From positions 1-61,199 of the forward strand of contig DATADW010000083.1 of assembly GCA_036258335.1 (NCBI GenBank): DNA of 61,199 nt. The letters are read 5' to 3'. The notes below the pieces were generated by a model. That model was not told the origin of the DNA. It was given only the letters and a program-made list of their open reading frames with translations, and did not search any database. Each line of letters opens with the position of its first letter. Position 1 is the first letter of the stretch. The translations under genes were made by a program, and so were the position numbers. This document shows, one piece after another, positions 5,600-43,730 of the stretch. This DNA is from Acidimicrobiia bacterium (lineage in GTDB: Bacteria; Actinomycetota; Acidimicrobiia; Spongiisociales; DATADW01).

Positions 5600-8317
5600 T
5601 TGGCCGATTATCCGTCCGACTATGAGTTCGACATCGTGCTGCGGGACGGTGCGGTTGCACGCTTCCGCCCGCTCCGCCCAGAAGATGCTCCGCTGCTGCT
5701 GGCGCTTTTCGAGCACACCGGTGCTCAGTCGCGCTACTACCGATTCTTCCGCGCCAAGGACGAGTTGACCCCCGAGGAACTCGAGCACTTCACCACGGTC
5801 GACTACGTGGATCGGATGGCGTTCGGCGTCTTTGAAGACGGGGAGATGGTGGGGGTCGGGCGGTACGACCGGGCGGAAGATGAGCCGGCCGCTGAGGTCG
5901 CCTTCTTGGTGGCCGATGCACAGCAGGGCCGCGGCATAGGAACCGCCCTCCTTCAGATGCTGGGTAGCTACGGGCGGGCCCACGGGGTGTCCGAGTTCAA
6001 GGCATTCGTGCTCCCCGAGAACCTGCAGATGATGCGGGTGTTCCGCTCCTCGGGGTATGAGTTGAGCCGCACTCTGGAGGAGGGCGTCTACTCGTTGGAC
6101 TTCCCCACCGCGGTCTCGGTCGGGAGCCGGGCCGCCGAGGAGGAGAGGGAAAAGCGGGCGGTGGCTGCCTCGATCCTCCCCATCTTCTACCCGCGGTCTA
6201 TCGCCGTGGTCGGTGCCAGCCGTACCCCCGGCTCGATAGGAGCGCGCCTGTTCTCCAATCTGGTGGGCTCGGGGTTCACCGGGGCGGTATACCCGGTCAA
6301 CCCAAAGGCGGGGGTGGTCCACTCGGTTCGGGCCTACCCATCGATCCTCGATATCCCCGACCCGGTCGACCTCGCCTTCATCGTGGTGCCTGCCCACTTC
6401 GCCCTCGATGCGGTGAGGGAGTGCGCAGAGAAGCGCGTCAAGGGTTTGGTTGTCATCTCCGCCGGCTTCTCCGAGGTGCCCGGTGGGGAGGATCTCGAGC
6501 GCCAGATCCTCGAGGTCGCCCGCTCGGCGGGGATGCGGATGGTTGGCCCCAACTGCATGGGGGTGCTCAACACCGATCCGGCGGTGCAGATGAACGGGAC
6601 GTTCGCCCCGGTCTACCCGCCTAGGGGCAACGTAGCCATGTCGAGTCAGTCGGGGGCGCTCGGGATCGCCATCCTCGACTACGCCCGGCAGAACAACATC
6701 GGGATCTCGACCTTCATCTCGGTCGGCAACAAGGCCGACGTCTCGGGTAACGACTTGCTTCTGGCATGGGAGGAGGACCCGGCCACCGATGTGATCGTCC
6801 TCTATCTGGAGTCATTCGGGAACCCGCGCCGCTTCGCCCGTCTGGCTCGCCGCATCGCCCGCAAGAAGCCGATCGTGGCGGTCAAGGCGGGCCGGACCAG
6901 CGCAGGCACCCGGGCAGCATCGAGCCACACCGGCGCCCTCGCCAGCCTCGATGTCGCCGTCGAGGCGTTGTTCAACCAGGCCGGCGTGATCCGCACCACC
7001 ACACTCGAGGAGCTGTTCGGGGTGGCTTCGCTGCTGGCCAACCAGCCGGTGCCCAAAGGCAGGCGGGTCGGCGTCATTACCAACGCCGGCGGACCGGGAA
7101 TCCTCGCTGCCGATGCGCTCGAGTCCGAGGAGCTCGAGCTTCCCGAGCTGTCCGAGGGCTTGCGGGCAAAGCTGGCCGAGGCTCTGTCGGCGGAAGCCTC
7201 GACGCGCAACCCCATCGACCTCATCGCCTCCGCCGGCCCTGACCACTACCGGCACTGCATCGAGACGCTGATCGAGAGCGACGAGGTCGACGCCGTCATG
7301 GTGATCTACATACCGACCACGCCCGATGGTTTGCAGGGCGTGGCTGCTGCGGTGCGCGAGATGGCGACGGCGCACCACGGGGAGAAGACGTTCGTCACCG
7401 TGTTCATGGAAAGCGAACACTCTGCCGCGCTGTTCGAGGACGCCCGGGTCCCCACCTTCGTCTTCCCCGAGGCGGCAGCGATTGCACTGAGCCGTGCGGC
7501 CCGGTATGGAGAGTGGCTCACCCGGCCGGAGGGGACCATTCCCACGCTGGCGGGGCTCGATCCCGGCGCCGCCCGCCGCGTGGTGGCCGCGGCGGTGGGA
7601 CGGCTCGGAGACGAAGGTGGCTGGCTCGAGCCCGGCGAAGTCGACGAGGTACTCGCCGCGTTCGGTATCCGGCTCCCGGTCAGCCGGGTTGTGGTCACCG
7701 CTGACGAGGCCGCGGTGGCCGCCGTCGATATCGGCGGGAAGGTGGTGTTGAAGGTGATCGCCCCATCCGCCCTCCATAAGAGCGATGTGGGCGGTGTCCT
7801 TCTCGACGTCGAGGGGGAGGGAGCGGTTCGCGCCGGCTTCGATCATCTCATGAGTGTGGTGGGCGATCCGGAAGGAGTCCTCGTCCAGGAGATGGTCGCG
7901 GGCGGCCACGAGGTGCTGATCGGCGTGACCGAGGATCCTTCATTCGGACCGTTGCTCGTCTTCGGTCTGGGCGGGGTCTACGTCGAGTTGCTCAAGGATG
8001 TGGCGGTGCGGATCGCCCCGATCACCGACCGCGACGCCGCCGAGATGGTGGGGGAGATCAAAACGGCACGGTTGCTCCAAGGTCGGTATCGCAACTTCCC
8101 CCCCGGTGATCTCGACGCACTCCAAGAGGCTTTGCTTCGGGTGTCGGCGTTGGTGGAGGCGGTCCCCGAGCTGGTAGAGATGGACATGAACCCGGTCAAG
8201 GTGCTCCTGCCGGGTGAGGGGGTGCGGGTGGTAGACGCCAGGATCAAGGTCCGGCCGCTCAAACCGGGCTGGTCGCCGGAGCTACTCGACATCCCCGGTC
8301 TGGCCGGGCACCGCTAA
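5600..8317 (+). CDS. patA: protein lysine acetyltransferase, PatA-type (N-terminal GNAT fused to NDP-forming acyl-CoA synthetase-like and ATP-grasp domains)
   Basis: GNAT motif A (QQGRGIGTALL) is N-terminal. It is followed by a CoA-binding region (SIAVVGASRTPGSIG), succinyl-CoA-synthetase-like flavodoxin domains and a C-terminal ATP-grasp region. Confidence 0.8.
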   Translation: MADYPSDYEFDIVLRDGAVARFRPLRPEDAPLLLALFEHTGAQSRYYRFFRAKDELTPEELEHFTTVDYVDRMAFGVFEDGEMVGVGRYDRAEDEPAAEVAFLVADAQQGRGIGTALLQMLGSYGRAHGVSEFKAFVLPENLQMMRVFRSSGYELSRTLEEGVYSLDFPTAVSVGSRAAEEEREKRAVAASILPIFYPRSIAVVGASRTPGSIGARLFSNLVGSGFTGAVYPVNPKAGVVHSVRAYPSILDIPDPVDLAFIVVPAHFALDAVRECAEKRVKGLVVISAGFSEVPGGEDLERQILEVARSAGMRMVGPNCMGVLNTDPAVQMNGTFAPVYPPRGNVAMSSQSGALGIAILDYARQNNIGISTFISVGNKADVSGNDLLLAWEEDPATDVIVLYLESFGNPRRFARLARRIARKKPIVAVKAGRTSAGTRAASSHTGALASLDVAVEALFNQAGVIRTTTLEELFGVASLLANQPVPKGRRVGVITNAGGPGILAADALESEELELPELSEGLRAKLAEALSAEASTRNPIDLIASAGPDHYRHCIETLIESDEVDAVMVIYIPTTPDGLQGVAAAVREMATAHHGEKTFVTVFMESEHSAALFEDARVPTFVFPEAAAIALSRAARYGEWLTRPEGTIPTLAGLDPGAARRVVAAAVGRLGDEGGWLEPGEVDEVLAAFGIRLPVSRVVVTADEAAVAAVDIGGKVVLKVIAPSALHKSDVGGVLLDVEGEGAVRAGFDHLMSVVGDPEGVLVQEMVAGGHEVLIGVTEDPSFGPLLVFGLGGVYVELLKDVAVRIAPITDRDAAEMVGEIKTARLLQGRYRNFPPGDLDALQEALLRVSALVEAVPELVEMDMNPVKVLLPGEGVRVVDARIKVRPLKPGWSPELLDIPGLAGHR

Positions 8318-33167: not shown

Positions 33168-34661
33168 TCAACGGTGTTGCGGGAAACCGAGATCGACCCC
33201 GCGGTGGATGGGGTCGGGCCAGCGCCCGATCACAACCTTGGGTCTGGTGTAGAAGCGGACGCCGTCGGGTCCGTATATGGCGTGATCGCCAAAGATCGAG
33301 CTCTTCCAACCGCCGAACGAGTAGAAGCTCAACGGGACGGGGATGGGGACGTTGATCCCCACCATGCCCACCTGTATCTCGTTCTGGAATTTCCTCGCCG
33401 CCCCGCCGTCGTTGGTGAACACCGCGGTCCCATTGCCATAGGGGTTGCGGTTGACCAGGTCGATTGCCTCCTCGTAGTGGTCCACACGCACCACGCTCAA
33501 CACGGGGCCGAAGATCTCGTCCTGGTAGATCGACATCTCAGGGGTGACCTGGTCGAAGAGACACGGGCCGAGGAAGAAGCCATCCTCGTGCCCGCTGACG
33601 GTGAGGTCCCTGCCGTCCTCGACCAATTGGGCGCCTTCGTTGATCCCCTTGTCGACGTACGCGGCAACCTTGTCACGGTGCTCGGCGGTGATCAGCGGGC
33701 CCATCTCGGCGTCTGGGTCGAGCCCGTTGCCCACGGTGAGCCCGCCGATCCGCTCCCGCATGGCGCTGAGCAGTGAGTCGGCGGCGTCGCCGACCGTGAC
33801 GACCACGGAGATCGCCATGCACCGCTCACCGGCCGACCCGTAACCGGCGGAGACGGCGGCGTCGGCGGCCAGTTCCATGTCGGCGTCGGGCAGTACCACC
33901 ATGTGGTTCTTGGCACCGCCCAGTGCCTGCACACGCTTGCCGTGGGACGTCCCCGTCTCGTAGATGTACCGGGCAATCGGTGTGGAGCCGACGAAGCTGA
34001 CCGCGGCGATGTCGGGGTGCTCGAGGATGCGGTCCACCGCCACCTTGTCACCGTGGACCACGTTGAAGACCCCGTCGGGCAACCCGGCCTCGGCGAGTAG
34101 TTCGGCACATAAGACGGACGCCGACGGATCCTTCTCCGAGGGCTTGAGGACGAAGGTGTTGCCGCAGGCGATGGCGATCGGGTACATCCACATGGGGACC
34201 ATGGCCGGGAAGTTGAATGGGGTGATCCCGGCGACAACGCCGAGCGGCTGGCGGATCATGTAGGTGTCGACACCCCGAGACACGTTCTCGGAGTAGTCCC
34301 CCTTGAGCAGGTGGGGAATACCGCAGGCGAACTCGATGACCTCCAGTCCCCGCTGCACCTCGCCGAGGGCATCGGCGAGAGTCTTGCCGTGCTCGCGGGT
34401 GAGGATCCGCCCGATGTCTTCCTTGTGCTCGACTGCGAGCCGGCGGAACTCGAACATGACGTTGGCCCGCGTGGTAAGGGCGCTGTCCTTCCAGATTTCG
34501 AATGCGGACTTGGCCGCGGCGACGGCTTCGTCAACCACATCGGCTGAGGCGAAGGCGACTTCCGCTTGAGGCTGTCCGGAGGCCGGGTCGAACACGGTCC
34601 CCGTCCGTTCCGGCGTTCCGTCCCAGGGTTTGCCGTTGATCCAGTGCTTGATGAGATTCAC
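33168..34661 (-). CDS. mmsA: CoA-acylating methylmalonate/malonate-semialdehyde dehydrogenase
   Basis: FNFPAMVPMWMYPIAIACGNTFVLKPSEKDP, catalytic Cys in GERCMA, and the C-terminal PIPVPLSFYSFGGWKSS typical of MmsA. Confidence 0.9.
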   Translation of the reverse strand: MNLIKHWINGKPWDGTPERTGTVFDPASGQPQAEVAFASADVVDEAVAAAKSAFEIWKDSALTTRANVMFEFRRLAVEHKEDIGRILTREHGKTLADALGEVQRGLEVIEFACGIPHLLKGDYSENVSRGVDTYMIRQPLGVVAGITPFNFPAMVPMWMYPIAIACGNTFVLKPSEKDPSASVLCAELLAEAGLPDGVFNVVHGDKVAVDRILEHPDIAAVSFVGSTPIARYIYETGTSHGKRVQALGGAKNHMVVLPDADMELAADAAVSAGYGSAGERCMAISVVVTVGDAADSLLSAMRERIGGLTVGNGLDPDAEMGPLITAEHRDKVAAYVDKGINEGAQLVEDGRDLTVSGHEDGFFLGPCLFDQVTPEMSIYQDEIFGPVLSVVRVDHYEEAIDLVNRNPYGNGTAVFTNDGGAARKFQNEIQVGMVGINVPIPVPLSFYSFGGWKSSIFGDHAIYGPDGVRFYTRPKVVIGRWPDPIHRGVDLGFPQHR

Positions 34662-34718
34662 GAATGTCCTCCGGCTCCCTCCGAGCCTAGGACGGCGGAC
34701 ACGGGTGGGGAACCGCCT

Positions 34719-36131
34719 TCAGATCAGGTACTGGTTGGTCTCCCGGGGCAGGTAGCGCCCGTCGCCAGGCGACCCGTGGTACTCGCCGTCGGCGATGACC
34801 ACCTTTCCTCTGGAGAGAACGGTTTCGATCGACCCGGCGACCTCCATGCCCTCGTAGCAGGAGTAGTCGGTCCGCATATGGTGGGTGTCGGCGGAGATGA
34901 CCATCGGACGATATGGGTCGAACACCACGATGTCGGCATCAGATCCCACCGCGATGGTGCCCTTGCGCGGGTAGAGCCCGAACATCCTCGCCGGGGTGGA
35001 GGCGCACACTTCGACCCAGCGGTTGATCGACAGACGCTCCTCGGCGACGGCACCGTGGTAGATGAGTTGCATGCGGTGCTCCACCCCGGGCAACCCGTTT
35101 GGAATCTTGGAGAAGTCGCCCTCCCCAAGCCGTTTCTGTCTGCCCAATTCGGGATGGTCCTCGAAGTTGAAGGGGCAGTGGTCGGTCGACACCACTTGCA
35201 AATCGTTGGTGGCCAGTCCGGCCCACAACGCTTCATGGTGGCCCTCGGCTCGGTCACGGAGCGGTGGGGAGCACACGTACTTGGCGCCCTCGAAGCCGTC
35301 GCCCAGGTCGTCCAAATCGAGGAAGAGGTACTGCGGGCAGGTCTCGGCGAACACATTGTTCGCCATGTCGCGGGCGATGGCGACCTCTTCGAGCGCTTCC
35401 TGCGCCGAGAGGTGGACTATGTAGAGGGGGCAACCGGCCACCTCGGCCAGCTTGATGGCGCGGTGGGTCGCCTCGCCCTCTAGGACCGACCGACGGACCA
35501 TCCCATGATGGATGGGATCCGTCTCGCCTGTGGCCAGCGCCTGCTCGATGAGCACGTCGATGGCGATGCCGTTTTCGGCGTGCATCATGATGGTCGACCC
35601 GTTCTCGGCCGCCTTCTGCATCGCCCGGAGGATTTCGCCGTCGGTCGAGTAGAAGACGCCGGGATATGCCATGAACATCTTGAACGAAGTGACCCCTTCG
35701 TCCATGGCCAGGTCCATCTCCTTGAGCGCCTGCTCGGTGACGTCGCCGACGATGAGATGGAACCCGTAGTCGATGGCGCAGTCACCTTCGGCTTTCGCCA
35801 TCCAGGCCTCGAAGCCCTCCATCAGCGACTGACCCTTTGTCTGCACGGCGAAATCGACGATCGTCGTCGTCCCGCCCCACGCCGCCGCTCGCGTGCCGGT
35901 CTCGAAGCTGTCCGAGGCAGCCGTGCCGCCGAAGGGGAGCTCCATGTGGGTGTGGACGTCGATCCCGCCGGGGACGACGAACTTGCCGGTGGCGTCGATG
36001 GTTTGGTCGGCCGTTCCTTCGAATGTCCCCGGTGTGAGCAGCGCAGCAATCCGCTCGTCCTCGATCAGTACATCGGCGGCCGTGCTGTCGGTGGCGGTGA
36101 CGACTGTCCCGTTGGCGATGAGCGTCCGCAT
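34719..36131 (-). CDS. dihydropyrimidinase / D-hydantoinase
   Basis: Starts MRTLIANG after AGGGAGG. Contains GGIDVHTHMELPF, SFKMFMAY (carboxylated Lys), HAENG and VSTDHCPF. Confidence 0.9.
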   Translation of the reverse strand: MRTLIANGTVVTATDSTAADVLIEDERIAALLTPGTFEGTADQTIDATGKFVVPGGIDVHTHMELPFGGTAASDSFETGTRAAAWGGTTTIVDFAVQTKGQSLMEGFEAWMAKAEGDCAIDYGFHLIVGDVTEQALKEMDLAMDEGVTSFKMFMAYPGVFYSTDGEILRAMQKAAENGSTIMMHAENGIAIDVLIEQALATGETDPIHHGMVRRSVLEGEATHRAIKLAEVAGCPLYIVHLSAQEALEEVAIARDMANNVFAETCPQYLFLDLDDLGDGFEGAKYVCSPPLRDRAEGHHEALWAGLATNDLQVVSTDHCPFNFEDHPELGRQKRLGEGDFSKIPNGLPGVEHRMQLIYHGAVAEERLSINRWVEVCASTPARMFGLYPRKGTIAVGSDADIVVFDPYRPMVISADTHHMRTDYSCYEGMEVAGSIETVLSRGKVVIADGEYHGSPGDGRYLPRETNQYLI

Positions 36132-36264
36132 CGCGCCTCCCTGTGTCGCTGCGCCCACGCTAATCGGGTGCCTGTCCACGTAGGCCGGGCGGAGGCGGGA
36201 GGTCCCCGTGAGGAGAGGTGCTACGACGCGGCGCCCGCCGGCCCTTCGGCTTTCAGGGGAAATG

Positions 36265-37377
36265 TCACGAAGGAGCGGCCGAGCCACTCACTTCCTGGGT
36301 TCTTCCCGCCCGATTCGCAACGATGTGGTCGACGATGTGCTCGGCGTCGCGCCCCACTCCTCCCACAAGCGCCGAACTCAGCGAGTAGAGGAAGAGAAGC
36401 CCCATGAAGTAGAGCCCGGGGTAGGACTCCACGATGCCCCGAGCGTTGACGGGGACGCCGTTATGAGTGGGCAGAGGAAAATCGATCCAGTCGTAATCGG
36501 GGGTGAATCCGGTGCACCAGATGATGTTGGACACGTCCAAGACACGTCCGTCTTCGAGCATCGGATAGCCGTCCTTCACACCGGTCGTTCTCCCCACCCG
36601 TTCGATACCGGCAGCGGCGATGTCCTTGCGTCGCACCCTGCCCAGGGGAATGCCACGGGGCGGGTCGAGGAAGTGGTCGCGCATCTTCCTCCCGGGTGGT
36701 GTATTCACCGTGAACCGCGTCGCCATGAGCCAGAGCACGGGTGTGAGAAGTAGATCCAAACGGCTACCGGCACGGGTGGGCTCCTGACCCGTGTCCCGGC
36801 CCGACAACCACGTTTGGTGGTTCGCAGCGATTTCGATGGCGATCTCCGCGCCCGAGTTGCCCGCTCCCACTACGAGCACCCCCCCTTCACGGAGTTGGGA
36901 TGGGTTGCGGTAGTCCTTGGAGTGAAGCTGGACGATGCTCTCATCGAGTTCGGGGGCGAACGGCGGGATCCTGGGGTTGTTGTATGCGCCCGTAGCAACG
37001 ATCACGTTGTCGGCGAGCAGCGTGCCACTGTCACAGACCACCTCGAATCGATCGCCTGCCCGCGACAGTCGCTCGACTTTGACTCCGGTGCGGACGGGGA
37101 GGTCGAACTGGCGGGCATATGCCTCCAGGTAGTCGGCCGTCTCATCCTTTGTCGGGTAGCAGGAGGGCGATCCCGGGAACGGCAGTCCCGGAAGTCCGTC
37201 GTAGCGGCCCGGCGTGAACAGACTCAGGGAGTCCCACCTCTTCCGCCAGGCATCTCCGATCCTGTCGTTTTCGTCCAGGATCACAAAAGGCAGACCCCAT
37301 TGAGCGAGGTGATACCCAGCGGCCAGACCCGACTGGCTTCCACCGATGACCACGGTTCCGACTTCGTGATTGCTCAC
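36265..37377 (-). CDS. FAD/NAD(P)-binding flavoprotein monooxygenase-like oxidoreductase (CzcO/FMO type)
   Basis: Two dinucleotide folds (VVIGGSQSGLAAG and VVGAGNSGAEIA). GTG start after AGGAGAGG. Confidence 0.75.
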   Translation of the reverse strand: MSNHEVGTVVIGGSQSGLAAGYHLAQWGLPFVILDENDRIGDAWRKRWDSLSLFTPGRYDGLPGLPFPGSPSCYPTKDETADYLEAYARQFDLPVRTGVKVERLSRAGDRFEVVCDSGTLLADNVIVATGAYNNPRIPPFAPELDESIVQLHSKDYRNPSQLREGGVLVVGAGNSGAEIAIEIAANHQTWLSGRDTGQEPTRAGSRLDLLLTPVLWLMATRFTVNTPPGRKMRDHFLDPPRGIPLGRVRRKDIAAAGIERVGRTTGVKDGYPMLEDGRVLDVSNIIWCTGFTPDYDWIDFPLPTHNGVPVNARGIVESYPGLYFMGLLFLYSLSSALVGGVGRDAEHIVDHIVANRAGRTQEVSGSAAPS

Positions 37378-37407
37378 TTTGCCTCTCCTGCTGCGGGCGT
37401 ACCGCCG

Positions 37408-37452
37408 AAACTAAGAAGATTCCTGGTTACTGGATATCGGGAATTCTCCTCA
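37408..37452 (-). promoter_or_regulatory. promoter-operator block, copy 1 (proximal to the flavoprotein gene)
   Basis: The minus strand reads TGAGGAGAATTCCC GATATCCA N17 TAGTTT. The -10-like hexamer ends 30 nt before GTG 37377. Confidence 0.5.
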
Positions 37453-37547
37453 CATGATCGGAACGGCCCGTACCTTCCCCCACAGATTGTCAGGGGGCTC
37501 CCACTGTCCGCCGCACGCCACCCGTCTCCTCTTCTTCCCTGAAGGGA

Positions 37548-37592
37548 ACGGTATGGGTCGACGTCTTGCCCGGCTATCGGGAGTTCTCCCCA
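37548..37592 (-). promoter_or_regulatory. promoter-operator block, copy 2
   Basis: The minus strand reads TGGGGAGAACTCCC GATAGCCG N17 TACCGT. Copies 2 and 3 share TATGGGTCG, an 11-nt spacer, then GGCTATYGGGAGTTCTCCCCA, read on the plus strand. Confidence 0.5.
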
Positions 37593-37599
37593 ACCCGAC

Positions 37600-39231
37600 A
37601 TGGCTCTACGCGTATCTTCCGGCCTTCTGAGCACTCCGCAGAGGAGCGACCGATCGGCGGTGGAAATGCCTGGTGAACCCGACGATTCCGTTGAGCGTGT
37701 TCGGTCCGCTGAGGTAATAGCGGCGACATGCCTGGCAACCGACCTGGGAATGGGGTTCCCCTTCGAGCATGGCCTCCACACCACCTTGATGGCGATGCGT
37801 CTCGCCGACCTCCTCTCCGTCTCGCCCGAGACGGCTTCGCAGACCTACTACGCGTCGCTGCTCACATATTCGGGATGCACCACCGACGCCGATCTGGCCA
37901 CAGAAGTCTTCGGGGGGAGCGCTCTCGACAACTTGACTCCCCGTCAGTTCGGGTCGGGGGCCGACCACTTCATCGGAGCTGTGAGATCAATGCCCCCTCC
38001 GAATACTTCGGCGTTGCGCCGGCCCTACGAGGTGGCGAGGCGGCTTTCGGTGGGATACCGATTCAGAGAACCCCATTTTGAGGCGATGTGCGAGGTGGCG
38101 GGAATGCTGGCGGAGCGGCTCGGTGTGCCGTCGTCGGTCCATCGGATGTTTTTCAAGCTCACCGAGCGTTGGGACGGCAAGAGCGTGCTACGCCGGGCAA
38201 AAGGAGACGAGGTCCCTCTGCCCATACGTATCACCCACGTCGCCGAGGACGCCGCCTTCCAACGGGTGATCGGAGGCGAGGAGCACGCCGTCGAGACCAT
38301 CCGCAGCCGGGCGGGCCACGCCTTCGATCCGGCCGTTGCCGAGGCTTTCACGCGGCATGCCGATGAGGTCTTCTCGGCGACCGAAGGGGAGTCGGCTTGG
38401 GAGGCGACGCTTCGAGCCGAGCCCAGGCCCCACCTTCATCTCGAGGGTGAGGCGATCGACCGCGCCATCGCTGCCATGGGCGACTTTGCCGACATGGTCT
38501 CGCCGACTTTCACCGGCCACTCGAGAGGTGTTGCCGACCTGGCCGCGGCGGCCGCCTTTGTCAGCGGTTTCGATGGCGATGGCATCACCGGGGTACGGCG
38601 GGCTGCGCTGGTCCACGACTTGGGCCGGGTCGCGGTCCATCCGCGGGTGTGGCTGAAGACGGGCCCGCTAACCGCAGACGACTGGGAGCAGGTCAGGCTG
38701 CATCCCTACCACACCGAGCGGGTGCTCTCCCGCTCCTCTTTCCTAACCCCCATGTCGGGGTCGGCCCGGGCCCATCACGAGCGGCTCGACGGCACCGGGT
38801 ACCACCGAGGGGTATCCGCACCTTCGTTGAGTGCGTCTGATCGGCTCATCGCAGCCGCCGACTCGTTCCGGGCGATGACCGAGTCGAGGCCGCATCGTGG
38901 AGGGGTTGCCCCCGAGGAGGCGGCTCGTCGTCTCGTCGAGGATGCACGGGCCGGCCGGCTCGACGCCGACATGGTGTCGGCGGTGTGCCAAGTAGCCGGG
39001 GAACCGGGACCTCGACCGCTGCGGCCCGCAGGGTTGACGGAGCGAGAGGGTGAGGTGATCGGACTGCTGGGGCGGGGTTTGCAGACCAAGCAGGTAGCTC
39101 GCCGACTCGACATCTCCGTCAAGACCGCCGACCGTCACATTCAGAACGCCTATCGGAAAATGGGGGTGTCGAGTCGGGCTGGTGCGACCCTCTTCGCCGT
39201 GGAGCACGGGCTGATCCCGCCCTCAAGCTGA
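37600..39231 (+). CDS. tandem HD-GYP-type domains (first degenerate) fused to a LuxR-type HTH regulator
   Basis: The second domain has ALVHDLGR and HHERLDGTGYHRG. The first has the same fold signature without HD (CLATDLGMG, KLTERWDGKS). The C-terminal LTEREGEVIGLLGRGLQTKQVARRLDISVKTADRHIQNAYRKMGV is a LuxR HTH. The start may instead be ATG 37666. Confidence 0.8.
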   Translation: MALRVSSGLLSTPQRSDRSAVEMPGEPDDSVERVRSAEVIAATCLATDLGMGFPFEHGLHTTLMAMRLADLLSVSPETASQTYYASLLTYSGCTTDADLATEVFGGSALDNLTPRQFGSGADHFIGAVRSMPPPNTSALRRPYEVARRLSVGYRFREPHFEAMCEVAGMLAERLGVPSSVHRMFFKLTERWDGKSVLRRAKGDEVPLPIRITHVAEDAAFQRVIGGEEHAVETIRSRAGHAFDPAVAEAFTRHADEVFSATEGESAWEATLRAEPRPHLHLEGEAIDRAIAAMGDFADMVSPTFTGHSRGVADLAAAAAFVSGFDGDGITGVRRAALVHDLGRVAVHPRVWLKTGPLTADDWEQVRLHPYHTERVLSRSSFLTPMSGSARAHHERLDGTGYHRGVSAPSLSASDRLIAAADSFRAMTESRPHRGGVAPEEAARRLVEDARAGRLDADMVSAVCQVAGEPGPRPLRPAGLTEREGEVIGLLGRGLQTKQVARRLDISVKTADRHIQNAYRKMGVSSRAGATLFAVEHGLIPPSS

Positions 39232-39352
39232 GGCTGGAACGCCGGGTGGGGAGCCCTACTGGGCGAACCGAAGTCAATAGCCGACGAGGATGGCGCCTCG
39301 CACCACTGCCGGAATCAGCCCATCAACGGTAGGAAAGCCGGGGACATCTGCT

Positions 39353-40240
39353 TCACCCCGCGAGGATCGTGTTCAGCGCCTCGCCGAAGGCTGCGGGCTG
39401 CTCTGCGATGGGGAGGTGGCCGGCGTCATCAATAGGAAACAGCGGCCAGCCGAATTTCCGACTCGCCCTCTCAGCGATCCCGAACTTCATCACTCGGTCA
39501 TGGCGGCCCCAGACCAGCGATACCGGCACCGCAATACGCCGCAGCTCGTCGTCGTGGATTCGCTTCGTTCCCAGCGTGCGCAGGAGGGTTCGGTTGGCGG
39601 CGCGCACCGTCGGCTGCTTGGCCCGTTCCATTTGATAGTCGAGTAATGCTGTCATCCGCTCACCCATCTGGGCCCGAACCCGCTGTGCGTCGTAAAAGAT
39701 CACCTCCTGCATCTTCTGCGCAGTGGTGAGGTTCGGGGCTCTCGAGAATCGGATGAGAGCAAGCAGCACCGAGGGCGCAGGCCGGAACGCGCCCAGTGAA
39801 CCGGAGTCCATCAGGATGAGCTTGACGAGCCCGTCTGGCTGGTGGATGGCAAAACGCGCCGCGATGCTCCCGCCGAGCGATGCGCCAAACAGGATCGGCG
39901 GTTGGTCGCAGGTATCGGCGACGAGCTCGCGCAGCCAATCGATGACTCGGCTTGGGTCAAGCGGGCCGTTACTGATCTCGGAGCGTCCCAGCCCGGGCAG
40001 GTCGGGTACTACAACCCGGTAGCGGTCGACGAGCTGCGCGGCCATTCCACCCATGAACGCTCCGAAGCCGCCCTGACCGTGGAGCAGGACCATCGGCGGG
40101 CCTTCACCGCCCTCCAATACAACCGTCGAAACCTTCGCGAGAGCAAGTCTCCTCTCGACCAATGGAAGGCCATCCATCGCCCGCGCTGCAAGCCGGTCCG
40201 CGTCCATGGCGTCCCTAGTGCTTGATGTGACCTGATCCAT
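39353..40240 (-). CDS. alpha/beta hydrolase
   Basis: HGQGG oxyanion region, nucleophile elbow GASLGG and a C-terminal His (DAGHLPIAEQP). Confidence 0.75.
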   Translation of the reverse strand: MDQVTSSTRDAMDADRLAARAMDGLPLVERRLALAKVSTVVLEGGEGPPMVLLHGQGGFGAFMGGMAAQLVDRYRVVVPDLPGLGRSEISNGPLDPSRVIDWLRELVADTCDQPPILFGASLGGSIAARFAIHQPDGLVKLILMDSGSLGAFRPAPSVLLALIRFSRAPNLTTAQKMQEVIFYDAQRVRAQMGERMTALLDYQMERAKQPTVRAANRTLLRTLGTKRIHDDELRRIAVPVSLVWGRHDRVMKFGIAERASRKFGWPLFPIDDAGHLPIAEQPAAFGEALNTILAG

Positions 40241-40264
40241 CTCGCTCTCCTCTCTCCGAGGAGG

Positions 40265-40309
40265 ACGCTATGGGTCGTAGCGCCTTTTGGCTATTGGGAG
40301 TTCTCCCCA
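40265..40309 (-). promoter_or_regulatory. promoter-operator block, copy 3 (alpha/beta hydrolase promoter)
   Basis: The minus strand reads TGGGGAGAACTCCC AATAGCCA N17 TAGCGT. The -10-like hexamer ends 24 nt before ATG 40240. Confidence 0.5.
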
Positions 40310-40384
40310 GGGCCCGCGCGTCCGGTGGCGAATTGGGTGACTCCCGCACCGGGCGACACCGCGGAAAACCTCGAGCCCGGAGCA

Positions 40385-41695
40385 TCAAGTCTCCGAGGTT
40401 GCCGCCTCCTCAAGCGCCTCGCGCAGTAGCTCGAAACCCTCGTCGGCTTCCGACTCGGTGAGAGACAGAGGCGGGGCGATACGGAGGACGTTGCCGTGGA
40501 GGCCACCCTTCCCAATCAACAGACCGCGTTGTTTGGTTCCCTCCATCACCGCCGCCGCCGCTTCCGCGTTGGGCTCGCGACTACCAGGACGAACGAGCTC
40601 GACGCCGATCATGAGGCCTTTGCCCCGCACCTCGCCCACGATGGGGATCTCCTCTACTAATGGGTCGATCCGGGCGCGTAGGTGGTTCCCCACCTTGTGG
40701 GCGTTGGTCTGCAGGTCGTGCTCCAGCATGTAATCGAGGTTTGCCAGCGCCCCCGCCATGACCAGCGGGTTGCCCCCGAATGTCGAGATTGAATTTGCCC
40801 CGATCGAGTCCATCACCTCGGCTCGGGCGATGACTCCTCCGATCGCCAGGCCATTTCCGGCACCCTTGGCAAACGTCAAGATGTCGGGAACGACGCCGTG
40901 AGCCTCGATACCCCAGAAGTTCTCCCCGGTTCGACCCCAGCCGGTCTGCACCTCGTCTGCGACAAGGAGGATCCCGCTCTCGTCGAGCACCTCCTTCATT
41001 GCCCCGAGGAGCCCGTCCGGTGGGGTGGCGAATCCACCAACTCCCTGGATGGGTTCGGCGATGAGACAGGCGACATCGCCGCTGGTGGCGACATCGAGCA
41101 TGTCGCGAAGGTCGGCGACACACGCCGCGACGTACTCGGCATCCGGAAGATGACCAAAAGGAGAGCGGTACCGGTAGCCACCGTGGACATACGTGACCTG
41201 GAGCGGGGAGAAGCTCGAAGCTGACCAGGAACGGTTCCCGGTGATCGCCATCGAGGAGTACGACCTCCCGTGGTAGCTGTTTCGCAGCGCCAGCACCTGG
41301 TTGGACCGCCGGTAGGTGGTGGCGAGCAGCAGGGCGGTGTCGTTGGCTTCGGTCCCCGAGTTGGTGAAGAACACCTTGGCATCGGGGATGGGGGAGAGGG
41401 CGGCGATCCGCTCCGCCAGCTCGACCTGCTGCTCGATCAGGTAGAGAGTCGAGGTGTGGAGCATCCGCCCGGCCTGCTCCCGTATCGCTTCGACAACCCC
41501 GGGCACCTTGTATCCCGAGATGGTGGTGAGGATCCCGCCGAAGAAGTCGAGGTACTCCCGCCCCTCGGCGTCGCGCACCCGACGCCCGTCACCATCGACC
41601 AGCGCGATCGGCTGTTGGTAATAGAGCGCCAGCCACGACGGGAGCACGCGGCGGTGACGCTGCAACAGACTCACGTGGATACCTGGCTCGGTCAT
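40385..41695 (-). CDS. class-III PLP aminotransferase (beta-alanine/omega-amino acid:pyruvate type)
   Basis: FTNSGTEAND, ADEVQTGWGRTG and TFAKGAGNG (PLP Lys). 436 aa. Confidence 0.85.
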   Translation of the reverse strand: MTEPGIHVSLLQRHRRVLPSWLALYYQQPIALVDGDGRRVRDAEGREYLDFFGGILTTISGYKVPGVVEAIREQAGRMLHTSTLYLIEQQVELAERIAALSPIPDAKVFFTNSGTEANDTALLLATTYRRSNQVLALRNSYHGRSYSSMAITGNRSWSASSFSPLQVTYVHGGYRYRSPFGHLPDAEYVAACVADLRDMLDVATSGDVACLIAEPIQGVGGFATPPDGLLGAMKEVLDESGILLVADEVQTGWGRTGENFWGIEAHGVVPDILTFAKGAGNGLAIGGVIARAEVMDSIGANSISTFGGNPLVMAGALANLDYMLEHDLQTNAHKVGNHLRARIDPLVEEIPIVGEVRGKGLMIGVELVRPGSREPNAEAAAAVMEGTKQRGLLIGKGGLHGNVLRIAPPLSLTESEADEGFELLREALEEAATSET

Positions 41696-41774
41696 GGCTT
41701 TGGCCTCCTCCCCTCGAAGCTAGTTCCGGTGCGCCCGGAGCCGCCAGCCACGACTACGGTGGCGAACAGAACCA

Positions 41775-41936
41775 ATGGGCTGGCTGATCCTCCTCGTAGC
41801 AATAGCGCTGGTCGTGTTCGGAGTGGGGTTCTTCTTCACCGCTCTCCGATGGTTGTTGATTGTCGGGGCCGTGCTGCTGGTGATTGGACTCGTCACCGGG
41901 TGGCTGCGCCGCAGTAACGAACCGCCGACTTCCTGA
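41775..41936 (+). CDS. possible small two-TM membrane protein (53 aa)
   Basis: Below the ORF-track size cutoff. The open frame atg...tga encodes MGWLILLVAIALVVFGVGFFFTALRWLLIVGAVLLVIGLVTGWLRRSNEPPTS. No clear SD. It lies between two minus-strand genes. Confidence 0.3.
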   Translation: MGWLILLVAIALVVFGVGFFFTALRWLLIVGAVLLVIGLVTGWLRRSNEPPTS

Positions 41937-41958
41937 TTCCGGCTGCCCCCTAGGCCTC

Positions 41959-42885
41959 TCAGCCCCCGGCCTCGACCAGGATGCCGCCCGAACCGGTGTC
42001 GATGGTGATGGTGCGCTCCGCCGACGGGTCGTTTACCACTCCCTCGAGGGTCTCGGACCCGGATGAGCTGTCCATGGCTATGGCGTAGGTGCCCTCGGGC
42101 ACCGTGATCTCGACGCTCCCCGACCCGGTGGACACCTCGACCATATCCGGCGCCGAGGCGAACTCGAGGTCGACTCCGCCCGATCCGGTGTCGGCAGTGA
42201 TCGAGGTGACGACCAGGGCGGATCCGTCGACGCTCCCCGAGCCGGTGTCGGCCGAGACCTCGCCGCCCACACCCTCGAGGTCGACACCACCGGAGCCGGT
42301 GTCGAACCTTCCCCCTGCGGTCATGCCGTTGATGTCGATGCCCCCCGACCCGGTGTCGACCTCCAGGGCGACGTCGGCAGGGGCGGTGATCACGTAGTCG
42401 GCCCCGCAGCCACCGATGAGAAACCCGCCGCCCTCGCACCGCACCGACAGGGTGAGCACCCCGTCCTCGACCTGCTCTATGACTTCGGGGCGCTCGTCGC
42501 CGTAGCTCAAGGTTCGCTCCACGTGGACTATCTCCCCACCCGCGTTCACCTCGACCTCGCCCGACGGCGTGTCCACCATGATCCGGCTGATCGGCTCGGC
42601 GAAGTCGGCCTGCTCGGTAACCTTGGTAGCCGGTCCAAACCCTGCCCCACCGGTGAAGGCGAGCACGGCGGTGATGACCGCGCCGGCGATGATCAGCGGG
42701 GTAGTCCCACCCTCGGAACGGGCCAGTGCCAGAAGGGCAATGCCGACACCGATGAGGGCTACGGCGAGGACCATCTCCCATTGGATGTCGACGCCCACTG
42801 CCGACAGGAGCCAGACGACCCCGGCGAGCAAAACCAACCCGCCGGCGACGAGGGTGCCCTGCCCCAACCCGGGCCGATCGGTCAT
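41959..42885 (-). CDS. DUF4097-type beta-strand repeat protein with N-terminal TM segments
   Basis: Repeated DTGSGG(I/V)D motifs (6 copies) follow two or three TM helices. ATG 42885 lies 2 nt after the upstream stop. Confidence 0.75.
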   Translation of the reverse strand: MTDRPGLGQGTLVAGGLVLLAGVVWLLSAVGVDIQWEMVLAVALIGVGIALLALARSEGGTTPLIIAGAVITAVLAFTGGAGFGPATKVTEQADFAEPISRIMVDTPSGEVEVNAGGEIVHVERTLSYGDERPEVIEQVEDGVLTLSVRCEGGGFLIGGCGADYVITAPADVALEVDTGSGGIDINGMTAGGRFDTGSGGVDLEGVGGEVSADTGSGSVDGSALVVTSITADTGSGGVDLEFASAPDMVEVSTGSGSVEITVPEGTYAIAMDSSSGSETLEGVVNDPSAERTITIDTGSGGILVEAGG

Positions 42886-42887
42886 GG

Positions 42888-43730
42888 CTACGGAGCCACC
42901 AGGTCGCCGTAGGCGTCCGGGCGGCGGTCTCGGTAGAAGGCCCACGTCGTGCGGACCTGATCGACCATGTCCAGGTCGAGGTCGCGTACCACCAGCTCCT
43001 CGTCGGCGTCCGAGGCGGCATCACCGACCAGCTGGCCCCTCGGGTCGCAGAAGTACGACGATCCGTAGAAGTCGTTGTCGCCGAACGGCTCGGTCCCCAC
43101 CCGGTTGATGGCGGCGACAAAGTACTCGTTGGCGACGGCGGCGGCGGGCTGCTCCAGGTTCCATAGGTACATGGAAAGCCCACGGCTCGTGGCCGAGGGG
43201 TTGAACACGATCTTGGCGCCCTTGAGCCCCAGGGCGCGCCAGCCCTCGGGGAAGTGGCGGTCGTAGCAGACATAAACCCCGATCCGGCCTACCGCCGTGT
43301 CGAAGATGGGATAACCGAGGTTGCCCGGCCGGAAGTAGTACTTCTCGAAAAACCCTTTGACGTGCGGGATGTGCGTCTTGCGGTACTTGCCGAGGTAGCT
43401 GCCGTCGGCGTCGATCACCGCCGCGGTGTTGTAGAAGAACCCGGCGTCCTCCTCCTCGAAAATCGGAAGGACAAGCACCATCCCGGTCTCTTTGGCCAGG
43501 TCCTGCATCAGCTTGGTCGTGGGGCCGTCGGGTATGGGCTCGGCGTACCCGAAGTGCTCGTCGTCCTGCACCTGGCAGAAGTAGGGACTGGAGAACAGCT
43601 CTTGGAAGCACATCACCCGGGCACCTTGCGCTGCGGCGTCGCGGGCATACTTGACCGACTTCTCGATCATCGATTCCTTGTCGCCGGTCCATTCGGTCTG
43701 CACCACGGCAGCGCGCACGACATTCGCCAT
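42888..43730 (-). CDS. beta-ureidopropionase / N-carbamoyl-amino-acid amidohydrolase (nitrilase superfamily)
   Basis: Glu-Lys-Cys triad context: CFQELF, YRKTHIP, VYVCYDRHFPE. Confidence 0.85.
   Translation of the reverse strand: MANVVRAAVVQTEWTGDKESMIEKSVKYARDAAAQGARVMCFQELFSSPYFCQVQDDEHFGYAEPIPDGPTTKLMQDLAKETGMVLVLPIFEEEDAGFFYNTAAVIDADGSYLGKYRKTHIPHVKGFFEKYYFRPGNLGYPIFDTAVGRIGVYVCYDRHFPEGWRALGLKGAKIVFNPSATSRGLSMYLWNLEQPAAAVANEYFVAAINRVGTEPFGDNDFYGSSYFCDPRGQLVGDAASDADEELVVRDLDLDMVDQVRTTWAFYRDRRPDAYGDLVAP

Follow-up and report, generated by a model that had tools for sequence, protein, structure and literature searches.

Dimeric transcription factors with a GerE-family helix-turn-helix (HTH) domain, such as NarL/NarP at 7-2-7 sites and LuxR/TraR at lux-type boxes, bind inverted repeats of 16-20 bp located at about -42 to -45 and act as class-II-type activators. 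Herein, we describe a 45-bp block, present in three copies on the minus strand of a 61,199-nucleotide stretch of Acidimicrobiia DNA (contig DATADW010000083.1; hereafter the window, 66% G+C), which is predicted to combine a promoter with the operator of an adjacent one-component regulator carrying a tandem HD-GYP module and a C-terminal LuxR-type HTH. The half-sites of NarL/NarP and LuxR/TraR differ from those of the block in sequence and orientation, and these systems take phosphorylation or an acyl-homoserine lactone as their input.

DosR/DevR of Mycobacterium tuberculosis offers a further comparison. In the cryo-electron microscopy structure of its activation complex, the DosR box is centred at about -43.5 beside a suboptimal -35 and a consensus -10 element, and DosR contacts both region 4 of sigma-A and the C-terminal domain of the alpha subunit (PMC13486717), while in the mapped DevR promoters 33-34 nt separate the proximal Dev box from the point where transcription begins (PMC3177182). 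The present system resembles DosR/DevR in its NarL/LuxR-type HTH, in a palindrome with GGGA-containing half-sites, and in the placement of the box beside a suboptimal -35 element. It differs, however, in that the half-site is GGGAG and not GGGACT, in that GGG and CCC are 6 instead of 8 nt apart, in that each promoter has one box whereas DevR promoters always have two or more in tandem (PMC3177182), and in that the input is a fused HD-GYP module and not a phosphorylated receiver domain. The block does not conform to the definition of the Dev box (a 20-bp palindrome with G4G5G6A7C8T9 half-sites); the kind of element is nonetheless familiar, namely a LuxR/NarL-family operator in class-II position.

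With regard to the protein, PdeL (YahA) of E. coli unites an EAL domain with a LuxR HTH; it recognizes an imperfect palindrome and, depending on cyclic di-GMP (c-di-GMP), activates transcription (PMC5052742). The regulator in the window likewise places a LuxR-type HTH and a cyclic-di-GMP phosphodiesterase-type domain on one polypeptide, although the latter domain is HD-GYP and not EAL and the domain order is reversed (HTH N-terminal in PdeL, C-terminal here); moreover, the sole known target of PdeL is its own promoter, where the site lies far upstream. The tandem of a degenerate N-terminal and a catalytic-type C-terminal HD-GYP domain is that of V-cGAP3, a 3'3'-cyclic GMP-AMP (3'3'-cGAMP) phosphodiesterase of Vibrio cholerae, which however is without a DNA-binding domain; in the present family GYH stands for GYP, and substrate specificity is not readable from the sequence. 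The same domain combination has been noted in SLUN_31535 of Streptomyces lunaelactis, an HD-GYP-LuxR protein said to have a 'unique domain structure' and to lack the GYP residues (PMC6205966); this protein, which we liken to the window regulator by architecture only, was mentioned without operator, targets or function. Whether HD-GYP proteins can be trigger enzymes is left open in a review by Hengge (PMC5052742).

A first-pass annotation of the window had proposed that a shared promoter-operator ties a flavoprotein gene and an alpha/beta-hydrolase gene to the LuxR-type regulator, and the comparative evidence described herein supported such a link, as far as it can be predicted from sequence. 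As summarized in Table 1, the three 45-bp copies were found exactly where they had been placed; the pattern TGRGGAGAAYTCCCRATAKCC-N18-TANNNT occurs exactly three times within the window, and 18 nt separate the core from the TANNNT hexamer in every copy. The distances to the downstream genes were also in good agreement with that annotation (30 nt from the end of copy 1 to the GTG at 37377, and 24 nt from the end of copy 3 to the ATG at 40240), as was the stretch common to copies 2 and 3, CGACCCATA. The dyad GGGAG-NN-CTCCC that it had ascribed to all the copies proved perfect (GGGAG-AA-CTCCC) in copies 2 and 3, but reads AGGAG-AA-TTCCC in copy 1 with three of five pairs matched; the T10 variant of the copy 1 dyad was seen again in other loci.

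Table 1. Features of the window and of related loci (window coordinates unless a homologue locus, designated by an L number, is named)
Feature	Coordinates	Strand	Sequence or evidence
Copy 1, 45-bp block	37452-37408	-	TGAGGAGAATTCCCGATATCC-N18-TAGTTT; matrix score 37.1 bits
Copy 1, palindrome of the predicted promoter-operator of the FMO-like flavoprotein gene	37452-37437	-	TGAGGAGAATTCCCGA
Copy 1, predicted -10	37413-37408	-	TAGTTT
Copy 2, 45-bp block	37592-37548	-	TGGGGAGAACTCCCGATAGCC-N18-TACCGT; matrix score 42.1 bits
Copy 2, predicted operator	37592-37577	-	Perfect consensus
Copy 2, predicted -10	37553-37548	-	TACCGT
Copy 3, 45-bp block	40309-40265	-	TGGGGAGAACTCCCAATAGCC-N18-TAGCGT; matrix score 38.9 bits
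Copy 3, predicted operator of the alpha/beta-hydrolase gene	40309-40294	-	
Copy 3, predicted -10	40270-40265	-	TAGCGT
Predicted target gene 1, FMO-like flavoprotein (Pyr_redox_3 type), 370 aa	36265-37377	-	Pfam
Predicted target gene 2, alpha/beta-fold hydrolase, 295 aa	39353-40240	-	Abhydrolase_6, 6.8e-23
Regulator gene, degenerate HD-GYP-like + HD-GYP + GerE/LuxR HTH	37666-39231 (likely start; longest open reading frame from 37600)	+	HD_5, GerE
Remnant of small membrane-protein gene	37453-37547	-	23-codon open reading frame ending at the TGA that opens copy 1
Candidate -10 of the regulator's own promoter	37613-37618	+	TATCTT; proposed from conservation of GCGTATCTT
In-frame block at regulator 3' end, L014	7537-7581		Example from family
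In-frame block at regulator 3' end, L036	7528-7572		Example from family
In-frame block at regulator 3' end, L132	6904-6948		Example from family
Neighbour genes, apparently catabolic	33168-36287, 40385-43730	-	Dihydropyrimidinase, aldehyde dehydrogenase, class-III aminotransferase, CN_hydrolase
517-aa open reading frame, probably not a real gene	41720-43273	-	No Pfam/NCBIfam match
CN_hydrolase open reading frame	42888-43730		Overlaps the 517-aa frame
Other-frame open reading frame within the 517-aa frame	41959-42945		DUF4097 'toastrack' match
Terminator-like hairpin in copy 3, probably chance	40266-40282	+	CGCTATGGGTCGTAGCG, then T-rich run

To such an arrangement chance contributes little: allowing up to three mismatches, the 21-nt core was found three times over the 61,199 bases, whereas 0.02 occurrences would be expected according to 100 dinucleotide shuffles, and a repeat search returned the same three copies as the top direct-repeat family of the region. 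When the window was scanned with a weight matrix of 47 columns, trained on 74 sites of other loci with the window left out, no position other than the three copies scored above 8 bits, and the same held in 20 shuffles. The three blocks are thus real and non-random, and are probably promoters with a probable binding site of the adjacent HD-GYP/LuxR regulator.

Three similar copies within 3 kb, each with a short inverted repeat, might equally bring to mind a structured RNA element or a dispersed repeat, of the repetitive extragenic palindrome or miniature inverted-repeat transposable element type, unrelated to promoters. This explanation was rejected as having next to no probability. An Rfam scan of 36000-42000 at E ≤ 1 gave no match, the folding z-scores of the copies (-0.2 to -1.0) were no better than those of shuffles, and the three predicted folds differ from one another; a dyad with a 2-nt centre cannot form a hairpin, and in the leaderless cases described below the motif lies upstream of the transcript. 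Nor does the block look like a genome-wide repeat, a finding by which the first-pass annotation would have been overturned, as only three copies are present in 61 kb and those elsewhere are tied to one gene family.

This tie was assessed from both the protein and the DNA side. A family search with the regulator gave 6,409 matches at E ≤ 1e-5 among 8,000 candidates scored, comprising proteins of about 500-550 aa mostly from metagenome-assembled genomes of Actinomycetota. Homologue loci were fetched by protein and not by motif, L001-L005 via exact protein look-ups and L006-L085 via a scan of metagenomes in which the peptides GFPFEHGL and RPAGLTERE served as seeds. Sufficient DNA beyond the regulator 3' end was at hand for 74 distinct cases, of which 65 had the motif at that very place and 70 anywhere in the locus, against a background of one site in 1.3 Mb of shuffled loci. 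In the other direction, an exact scan for the 17-mer TGGGGAGAACTCCCGAT over one genome per GTDB species, with the sites read in 8-kb chunks, yielded at least 123 sites among the matches listed, at least 105 of them with TANNNT at +18. Within this same set of matches, 86 of the TANNNT-positive sites shared their chunk with a regulator homologue and 19 did not, while the sites devoid of TANNNT at +18 were divided into 3 with and 15 without a regulator. Most of the latter 15 come from other phyla (Spirochaetia, Omnitrophota, cyanobacteria and others); these sites appear to be matches by chance. The carriers span Thermoleophilia, Acidimicrobiia and Actinomycetes, and include the cultured Kribbella sancticallisti and K. 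steppae.

As for the genes downstream, the partner seen most often in the family is an FMO-like gene beside the regulator. FMO-like genes together with small membrane proteins account for 49 unique sites, followed by UbiE-type methyltransferases (37), alpha/beta hydrolases (28), DUF998 proteins (13) and a protein of about 90 aa of unknown kind (11), with MtN3/PQ-loop-like, SCO4226-like and other genes at fewer sites. The block is the predicted signature promoter of a very large actinobacterial HD-GYP-LuxR regulator family.

Several carriers deserve separate mention. L094, L102, L153, L158 and L133 are labelled Acidobacteriota, Candidatus Binatia or Dongiaceae, and all have the motif with TANNNT; the first four also carry the regulator, and L133 (Dongiaceae) does not. 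These odd phylum labels could reflect mis-binning or horizontal transfer. In addition, distant paralogues (40-55% identity, helix IAPKTVDRHLQNSYAK) in L090 (site at 2948) and L180 (site at 7449) have the exact canonical 17-mer just past the stop codon, with GCATCG and GCAACG in place of TANNNT at +18. Two paralogues occur in one 8-kb chunk of L090, and in L089 the hexamer stands at a 17-nt spacing.

The alignment of these sites revealed the architecture of a promoter. In the protein-seeded loci together with the window, TANNNT was located exactly 18 nt past the 21-mer in 84 of 87 sites. According to the sequence logo, positions 1-17 are near-invariant and the hexamer reads TA(G/C)(C/G)GT, and the conserved core corresponds to a 16-bp imperfect 7-2-7 palindrome, TGGGGAG-AA-CTCCCGA, which suits a dimeric NarL/LuxR-type HTH. 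It is directly followed by a weak -35-like hexamer, T(T/A)(G/C)CCC (T17-C22). A start codon was found exactly 7 nt past the -10 hexamer at 28 of 180 unique sites (ATG 22, GTG 6), opening reading frames of typically 100-370 codons; nine more stood at 6 nt, and the other offsets from 0 to 19 mostly held 0-3. Leaderless mRNAs are common in Actinobacteria, and the peak at 7 nt points to a leaderless-mRNA geometry with +1 at motif position 53, from which the centre of the palindrome would fall at -44.5, or at -43.5 in the usual -12/-7 hexamer numbering. At most of the other sites, the first long reading frame is preceded by a ribosome-binding site of the GGAGG type.

A binding site at about -41.5 to -44.5, a suboptimal -35 and a -10 hexamer, with the start inferred from the start codons, together make up a class-II-type promoter, and the class II activator geometry put forward for the window, with the palindrome centred at about -44.5, was thereby supported. 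The '-35-like' element GATAGCC that had been proposed along with it is indeed present, but is a poor -35, and a generic sigma-70 scan of 37000-40600 detected no promoter. This blank is no argument against a promoter, since actinobacterial and activator-dependent promoters do without a consensus -35. Taken together, we consider it probable, at roughly two chances in three, that each block represents a promoter of the sigma-A type, the upstream half of which serves as the operator of the adjacent one-component regulator.

Two further conserved bases were noticed. C38, two bases before the hexamer, is present in 93-99% of the sites and C46, directly after the hexamer, in 82-92%, in sites that overlap coding sequence and in non-coding sites alike. 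In the window, C38 occurs in all copies (37415, 37555 and 40272) and C46 in copies 1 and 3 only (37407 and 40264), with T in copy 2. Both bases lie outside the standard -10 and extended -10 descriptions.

The same operator and regulator could also work in the opposite sense, with a repressor that blocks RNA polymerase near or over the -35 and is released by its ligand. Many one-component regulators encoded beside oxidoreductase, hydrolase or methyltransferase genes are repressors, the targets here look like an inducible detoxification/modification set, and the palindrome ends one base before the -35-like hexamer. In contrast, the weakness of the -35 and the failure of the generic scan to find a self-sufficient sigma-70 promoter speak against repression, and the operator is situated upstream of the -35, neither between -35 and -10 nor over the start site. 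Furthermore, simple occlusion needs no distance to the -10 that is fixed to the base pair, as it is in all but three of the aligned sites, and the geometry is the same as that of DosR-activated promoters (PMC13486717, PMC3177182). Repression hence appears unlikely. A base-pair-exact spacing rather implies a protein that must touch RNA polymerase, which favours activation, and from this geometry and the analogy with described activators we consider activation by the regulator likely.

In the canonical layout of the family, observed at 143 of 179 unique sites, the block lies over the 3' end of the regulator gene itself on the same strand. At 128 of these 143 sites it is in frame, TGG GGA GAA CTC CCG ATT being read as WGELPI, and the TAG of a TAGCGT -10 is often the stop codon of the regulator (examples in Table 1). 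Gene callers report variable 'WGELPI...' tails because the operator lies in the last codons. The in-frame overlap is absent from the regulator of the window, which ends at 39231; its clade has lost the canonical 3'-end promoter, and the regulators there end in ...EHGLIPPSS.

Such an overlap raises the question of whether the motif merely encodes a WGELPI tail conserved at the protein level, with the window copies as relics, and both the prevalence of in-frame sites and the many annotated homologues ending in ...WGELPI... would be expected in that case. The codon usage argues otherwise. GGA is used in 35 of 36 motifs against 14% in gene bodies, GAA in 36 of 36 against 18%, and ATT in 26 of 36 against 8%, so that the codons fixed at the synonymous positions are ones that the genes otherwise seldom use, and the constraint thus acts on DNA and not on protein. 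In addition, the same consensus and spacing, including C38 and C46, recur at 57 sites outside the regulator 3' end, among them the three window copies (two intergenic, and copy 1 after a gene remnant), and the conservation reaches the -10 hexamer and C38. The codon analysis and the non-coding sites led us to reject the protein-level explanation, whose probability we regard as very low.

The relationship between the regulator and its putative operator was further examined at the level of the recognition helix. This helix, KTADRHIQNAYRK, is near-invariant among regulators that are about 60% identical overall, which matches the near-invariant operator. A subfamily from Acidimicrobiia (L040, L069, L075, L077, L081 and L206-L210) carries the helix ISPKT(V/A)DRHIQNSYRK, and its operator has the right half TTCCGTAT, i.e. 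TGGGGAG-TA-TTCCGTATTCAC, giving the variant operator TGGGGAGTATTCCGTA; the operator of L207 is intermediate (TGGGGAGAACTCCGTATT). The site after the regulator, the 18-19-nt spacing, C38, a TACGTT hexamer and the FMO-like target are all unchanged in the subfamily. Regulators with the KTV helix were accompanied by the variant operator in 6 cases and by the canonical one in 1, and those with the KTA helix in 4 and 139 cases, respectively. Covariation of this kind would be expected if a transcription factor and its operator co-evolve, and would be in line with binding by this protein. A single-residue recognition code (KTV versus KTA) was also considered and rejected, as the correlation is not clean and all variants come from one subfamily.

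These observations bear on a further possibility, in which another factor, either an alternative sigma or an unlinked transcription factor, reads the motif and the HD-GYP/LuxR gene is merely a neighbour or a member of the regulon. Since most sites lie on the 3' end of the regulator gene, the linkage could partly reflect the inheritance of one gene-plus-promoter unit, and the 19 TANNNT-positive sites without a regulator in their chunk, among the matches listed, also speak for another factor. A palindromic 7-2-7 site, however, fits a dimeric NarL/LuxR-type HTH and not a sigma -35 element, no -10 of the extracytoplasmic function (ECF) type occurs at a fitting spacing, and the operator variant follows the helix variant of the regulator. 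The motif is also found divergent from or distant to the regulator gene yet still inside regulator loci, as with the three copies in the window. We thus hold the involvement of such another factor to be improbable. An ECF-sigma reading, with GGAGAAC as a GGAAC-type -35, was rejected, as the logo shows no conserved CGTC/GTT base 16-19 nt downstream.

The regulator itself was characterized from its sequence and a structure model. The public gene call (P0001, 543 aa) begins at 37600, with no ribosome-binding site before it. In P0002, a homologue of 89% identity, the first residue corresponds to M23, and it is only near this position that the alignment of most homologues begins; in L114 the codon equivalent to ATG 37666 is preceded by an in-frame TAG, and residues 1-28 of the model have predicted local distance difference test (pLDDT) values below 50. 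The public call is therefore probably 22 codons too long at the N terminus, with ATG 37666 as the likely start. Copy 2 had been described as abutting the regulator gene, which is true only of the longest reading frame (ATG 37600); from ATG 37666 it is 74 nt away.

Pfam assigned HD_5 (4.5e-29) and GerE (1.3e-13; 50.7 bits against a cut-off of 23.5), and the four-helix GerE-type HTH at the C terminus makes the protein a member of the LuxR/FixJ/NarL-type factors; the closest solved DNA-binding domains in the PDB are those of LiaR, VraR, DosR, GerE and NarL (E 5e-9 to 3e-7). Over residues 16-439, covering both HD-GYP-related domains, the sequence matched V-cGAP3 (5z7c) at E = 7.4e-42, and a Foldseek search with the AlphaFold model also ranked 5z7c first (E = 4.5e-13, 447 aligned columns, template modelling score 0.71 normalised to the target), followed by c-di-GMP-bound HD-GYP domains. 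The predicted HD-GYP metal ligands H307, H339, D340, H368, H392, H393, E394 and D421 were invariant in 25 homologues. The intact GYP signature is not present, as the protein has HHERLDGTGYH with the proline replaced by histidine throughout the family, and the N-terminal domain is degenerate, with TD for HD and TERWDGKG for HHE..DG.GYP. The arrangement is thus that of V-cGAP3, and the tandem HD-GYP module probably senses a cyclic-dinucleotide signal.

On the basis of these features, we propose a mechanism in which a dimer of the C-terminal LuxR/NarL-type HTH would bind the 7-2-7 palindrome at about -44.5, adjoining the -35 region, and would most likely recruit RNA polymerase by touching region 4 of sigma and the C-terminal domain of alpha, in the manner of DosR and LuxR-type activators. 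The V-cGAP3-like module would bind, and possibly hydrolyse, a cyclic dinucleotide (c-di-GMP or 3'3'-cGAMP), and by analogy with PdeL this binding or turnover is probably coupled to DNA binding and activation. Within the window, copy 1 would then drive the flavoprotein gene and copy 3 the hydrolase gene, with copy 2 as a leftover promoter reading into copy 1 and the FMO-like gene.

Several points weigh against activation of these blocks by this regulator. The dyad of copy 1 is weaker than those of copies 2 and 3. A site abutting the -35 region could equally occlude RNA polymerase, and for about 10% of the TANNNT-positive sites the fetched DNA contains no regulator, which could mean regulation in trans or by another factor. 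The helix-operator covariation is a clade-level pattern and not a series of independent events. With regard to the signal, GYH in place of GYP leaves the catalytic activity and the ligand uncertain, and a literature search on the architecture returned only the one-line mention of SLUN_31535 (PMC6205966). A search with the motif string found only unrelated primers and sequences.

The history of the locus could be traced through its relatives. For copy 1, whose counterparts stand upstream of FMO orthologues in L001, L114 and L192, transcription is predicted to start at about 37400 and to yield a 23-nt leader with a GGAGAGG ribosome-binding site. The flavoprotein matched the ArsO and MSMEG_0569 families in part, in each case under the cut-off, and an FMO-like gene adjoining the regulator recurs in L001-L005 and L206-L211. 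For copy 3, which has counterparts in L001, L172 and L182, the predicted start is about 40257, followed by a 17-nt leader.

Copy 2 has a different background. In L114 (92% identity) and L192 (about 90%), its counterpart stands before a PQ-loop/MtN3-like membrane-protein gene of 110-127 aa, placed between the regulator and the FMO gene, which it would drive; in L114 this gene is leaderless, with GTG 7 nt past TACCGT. The L114 protein had no Pfam match, and a similar target (represented by that of L135) matched MtN3_slv. The gene has been deleted in the window and in L001. In the window, 95 nt are left (37547-37453), the 3' part of which (GGCCGTTCCGATCATGTGAGGAG) can be aligned with the end of the 127-aa L114 gene (GGCCGTCTGATCATCTGGGGAA). 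In L001 the counterpart of copy 2 has decayed (GAAGGAG..., with GACATC where the -10 was), unlike copy 2 in the window, which is still perfect. Copy 2 may accordingly be viewed as an orphaned promoter that may still fire, from a start predicted at about 37540, as the upstream tandem promoter of the FMO gene.

Copy 2 may also serve as the operator of a divergent promoter of the regulator. The sequence GCGTATCTT (37610-37618, plus strand) is conserved among the window, L114, L192 and L001 amid intergenic DNA that differs between them, and the candidate -10 that it contains lies 20 nt from the edge of copy 2; with TATCTT as the -10, the centre of the copy 2 palindrome (37584.5) would be placed at about -41.5. 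Among the 179 unique sites, 12 are divergent from a regulator start as copy 2 is. The autoregulation that the first-pass annotation had suggested is thus plausible but secondary; in the closest relatives the counterpart of copy 2 appears to drive the small membrane-protein gene.

The plus strand of copy 3 also contains a terminator-like hairpin. Such matches numbered 3 in the scan against 1.8 expected, it does not coincide with the end of any gene on the plus strand, and copies 1 and 2 do not conserve the inverted repeat; the hairpin is probably due to chance. The locus as a whole is embedded in the catabolic genes listed in Table 1, of which the dihydropyrimidinase matched TIGR02033 with 570 bits against a cut-off of 393, and the surrounding cluster looks like reductive pyrimidine/beta-alanine catabolism. 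The same neighbours are found in L001, and none of these genes has a motif copy of its own. The 517-aa reading frame among them is probably not a real gene: it overlaps the CN_hydrolase frame, and the DUF4097 match in another frame within it was also obtained in L001.

With regard to its meaning, the block provides a precise operator (TGGGGAG-AA-CTCCCGA at about -44.5) and a first list of predicted targets for a family with more than 6,000 sequence clusters, and the usual placement of operator and -10 within the final codons of the regulator gene represents a compact dual coding that explains mis-called gene ends in thousands of annotations. Experiments are feasible in the cultured carriers Kribbella steppae VKM Ac-2572 and K. 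sancticallisti JCM 14969 (loci L132 and L124). More tentatively, and with the odds at present rather against it, the family might comprise phylum-wide HD-GYP 'trigger phosphodiesterase' transcription factors that bind and hydrolyse c-di-GMP, 3'3'-cGAMP or a related nucleotide and thereby activate a handful of genes for oxidoreductases, hydrolases, methyltransferases and membrane proteins, from a promoter typically located inside their own 3' coding end. To our knowledge, Actinobacteria have few cyclic-dinucleotide effectors (BldD, RsiG and some mycobacterial regulators). If true, the proposal would establish an HD-GYP counterpart of PdeL, an idea already proposed that we did not find demonstrated in the literature searched, and an HD-GYP-fused transcription factor would add a new output type and answer the question of HD-GYP trigger enzymes. 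It would then represent a major unrecognised cyclic-dinucleotide output pathway in Thermoleophilia, Acidimicrobiia and Actinomycetes.

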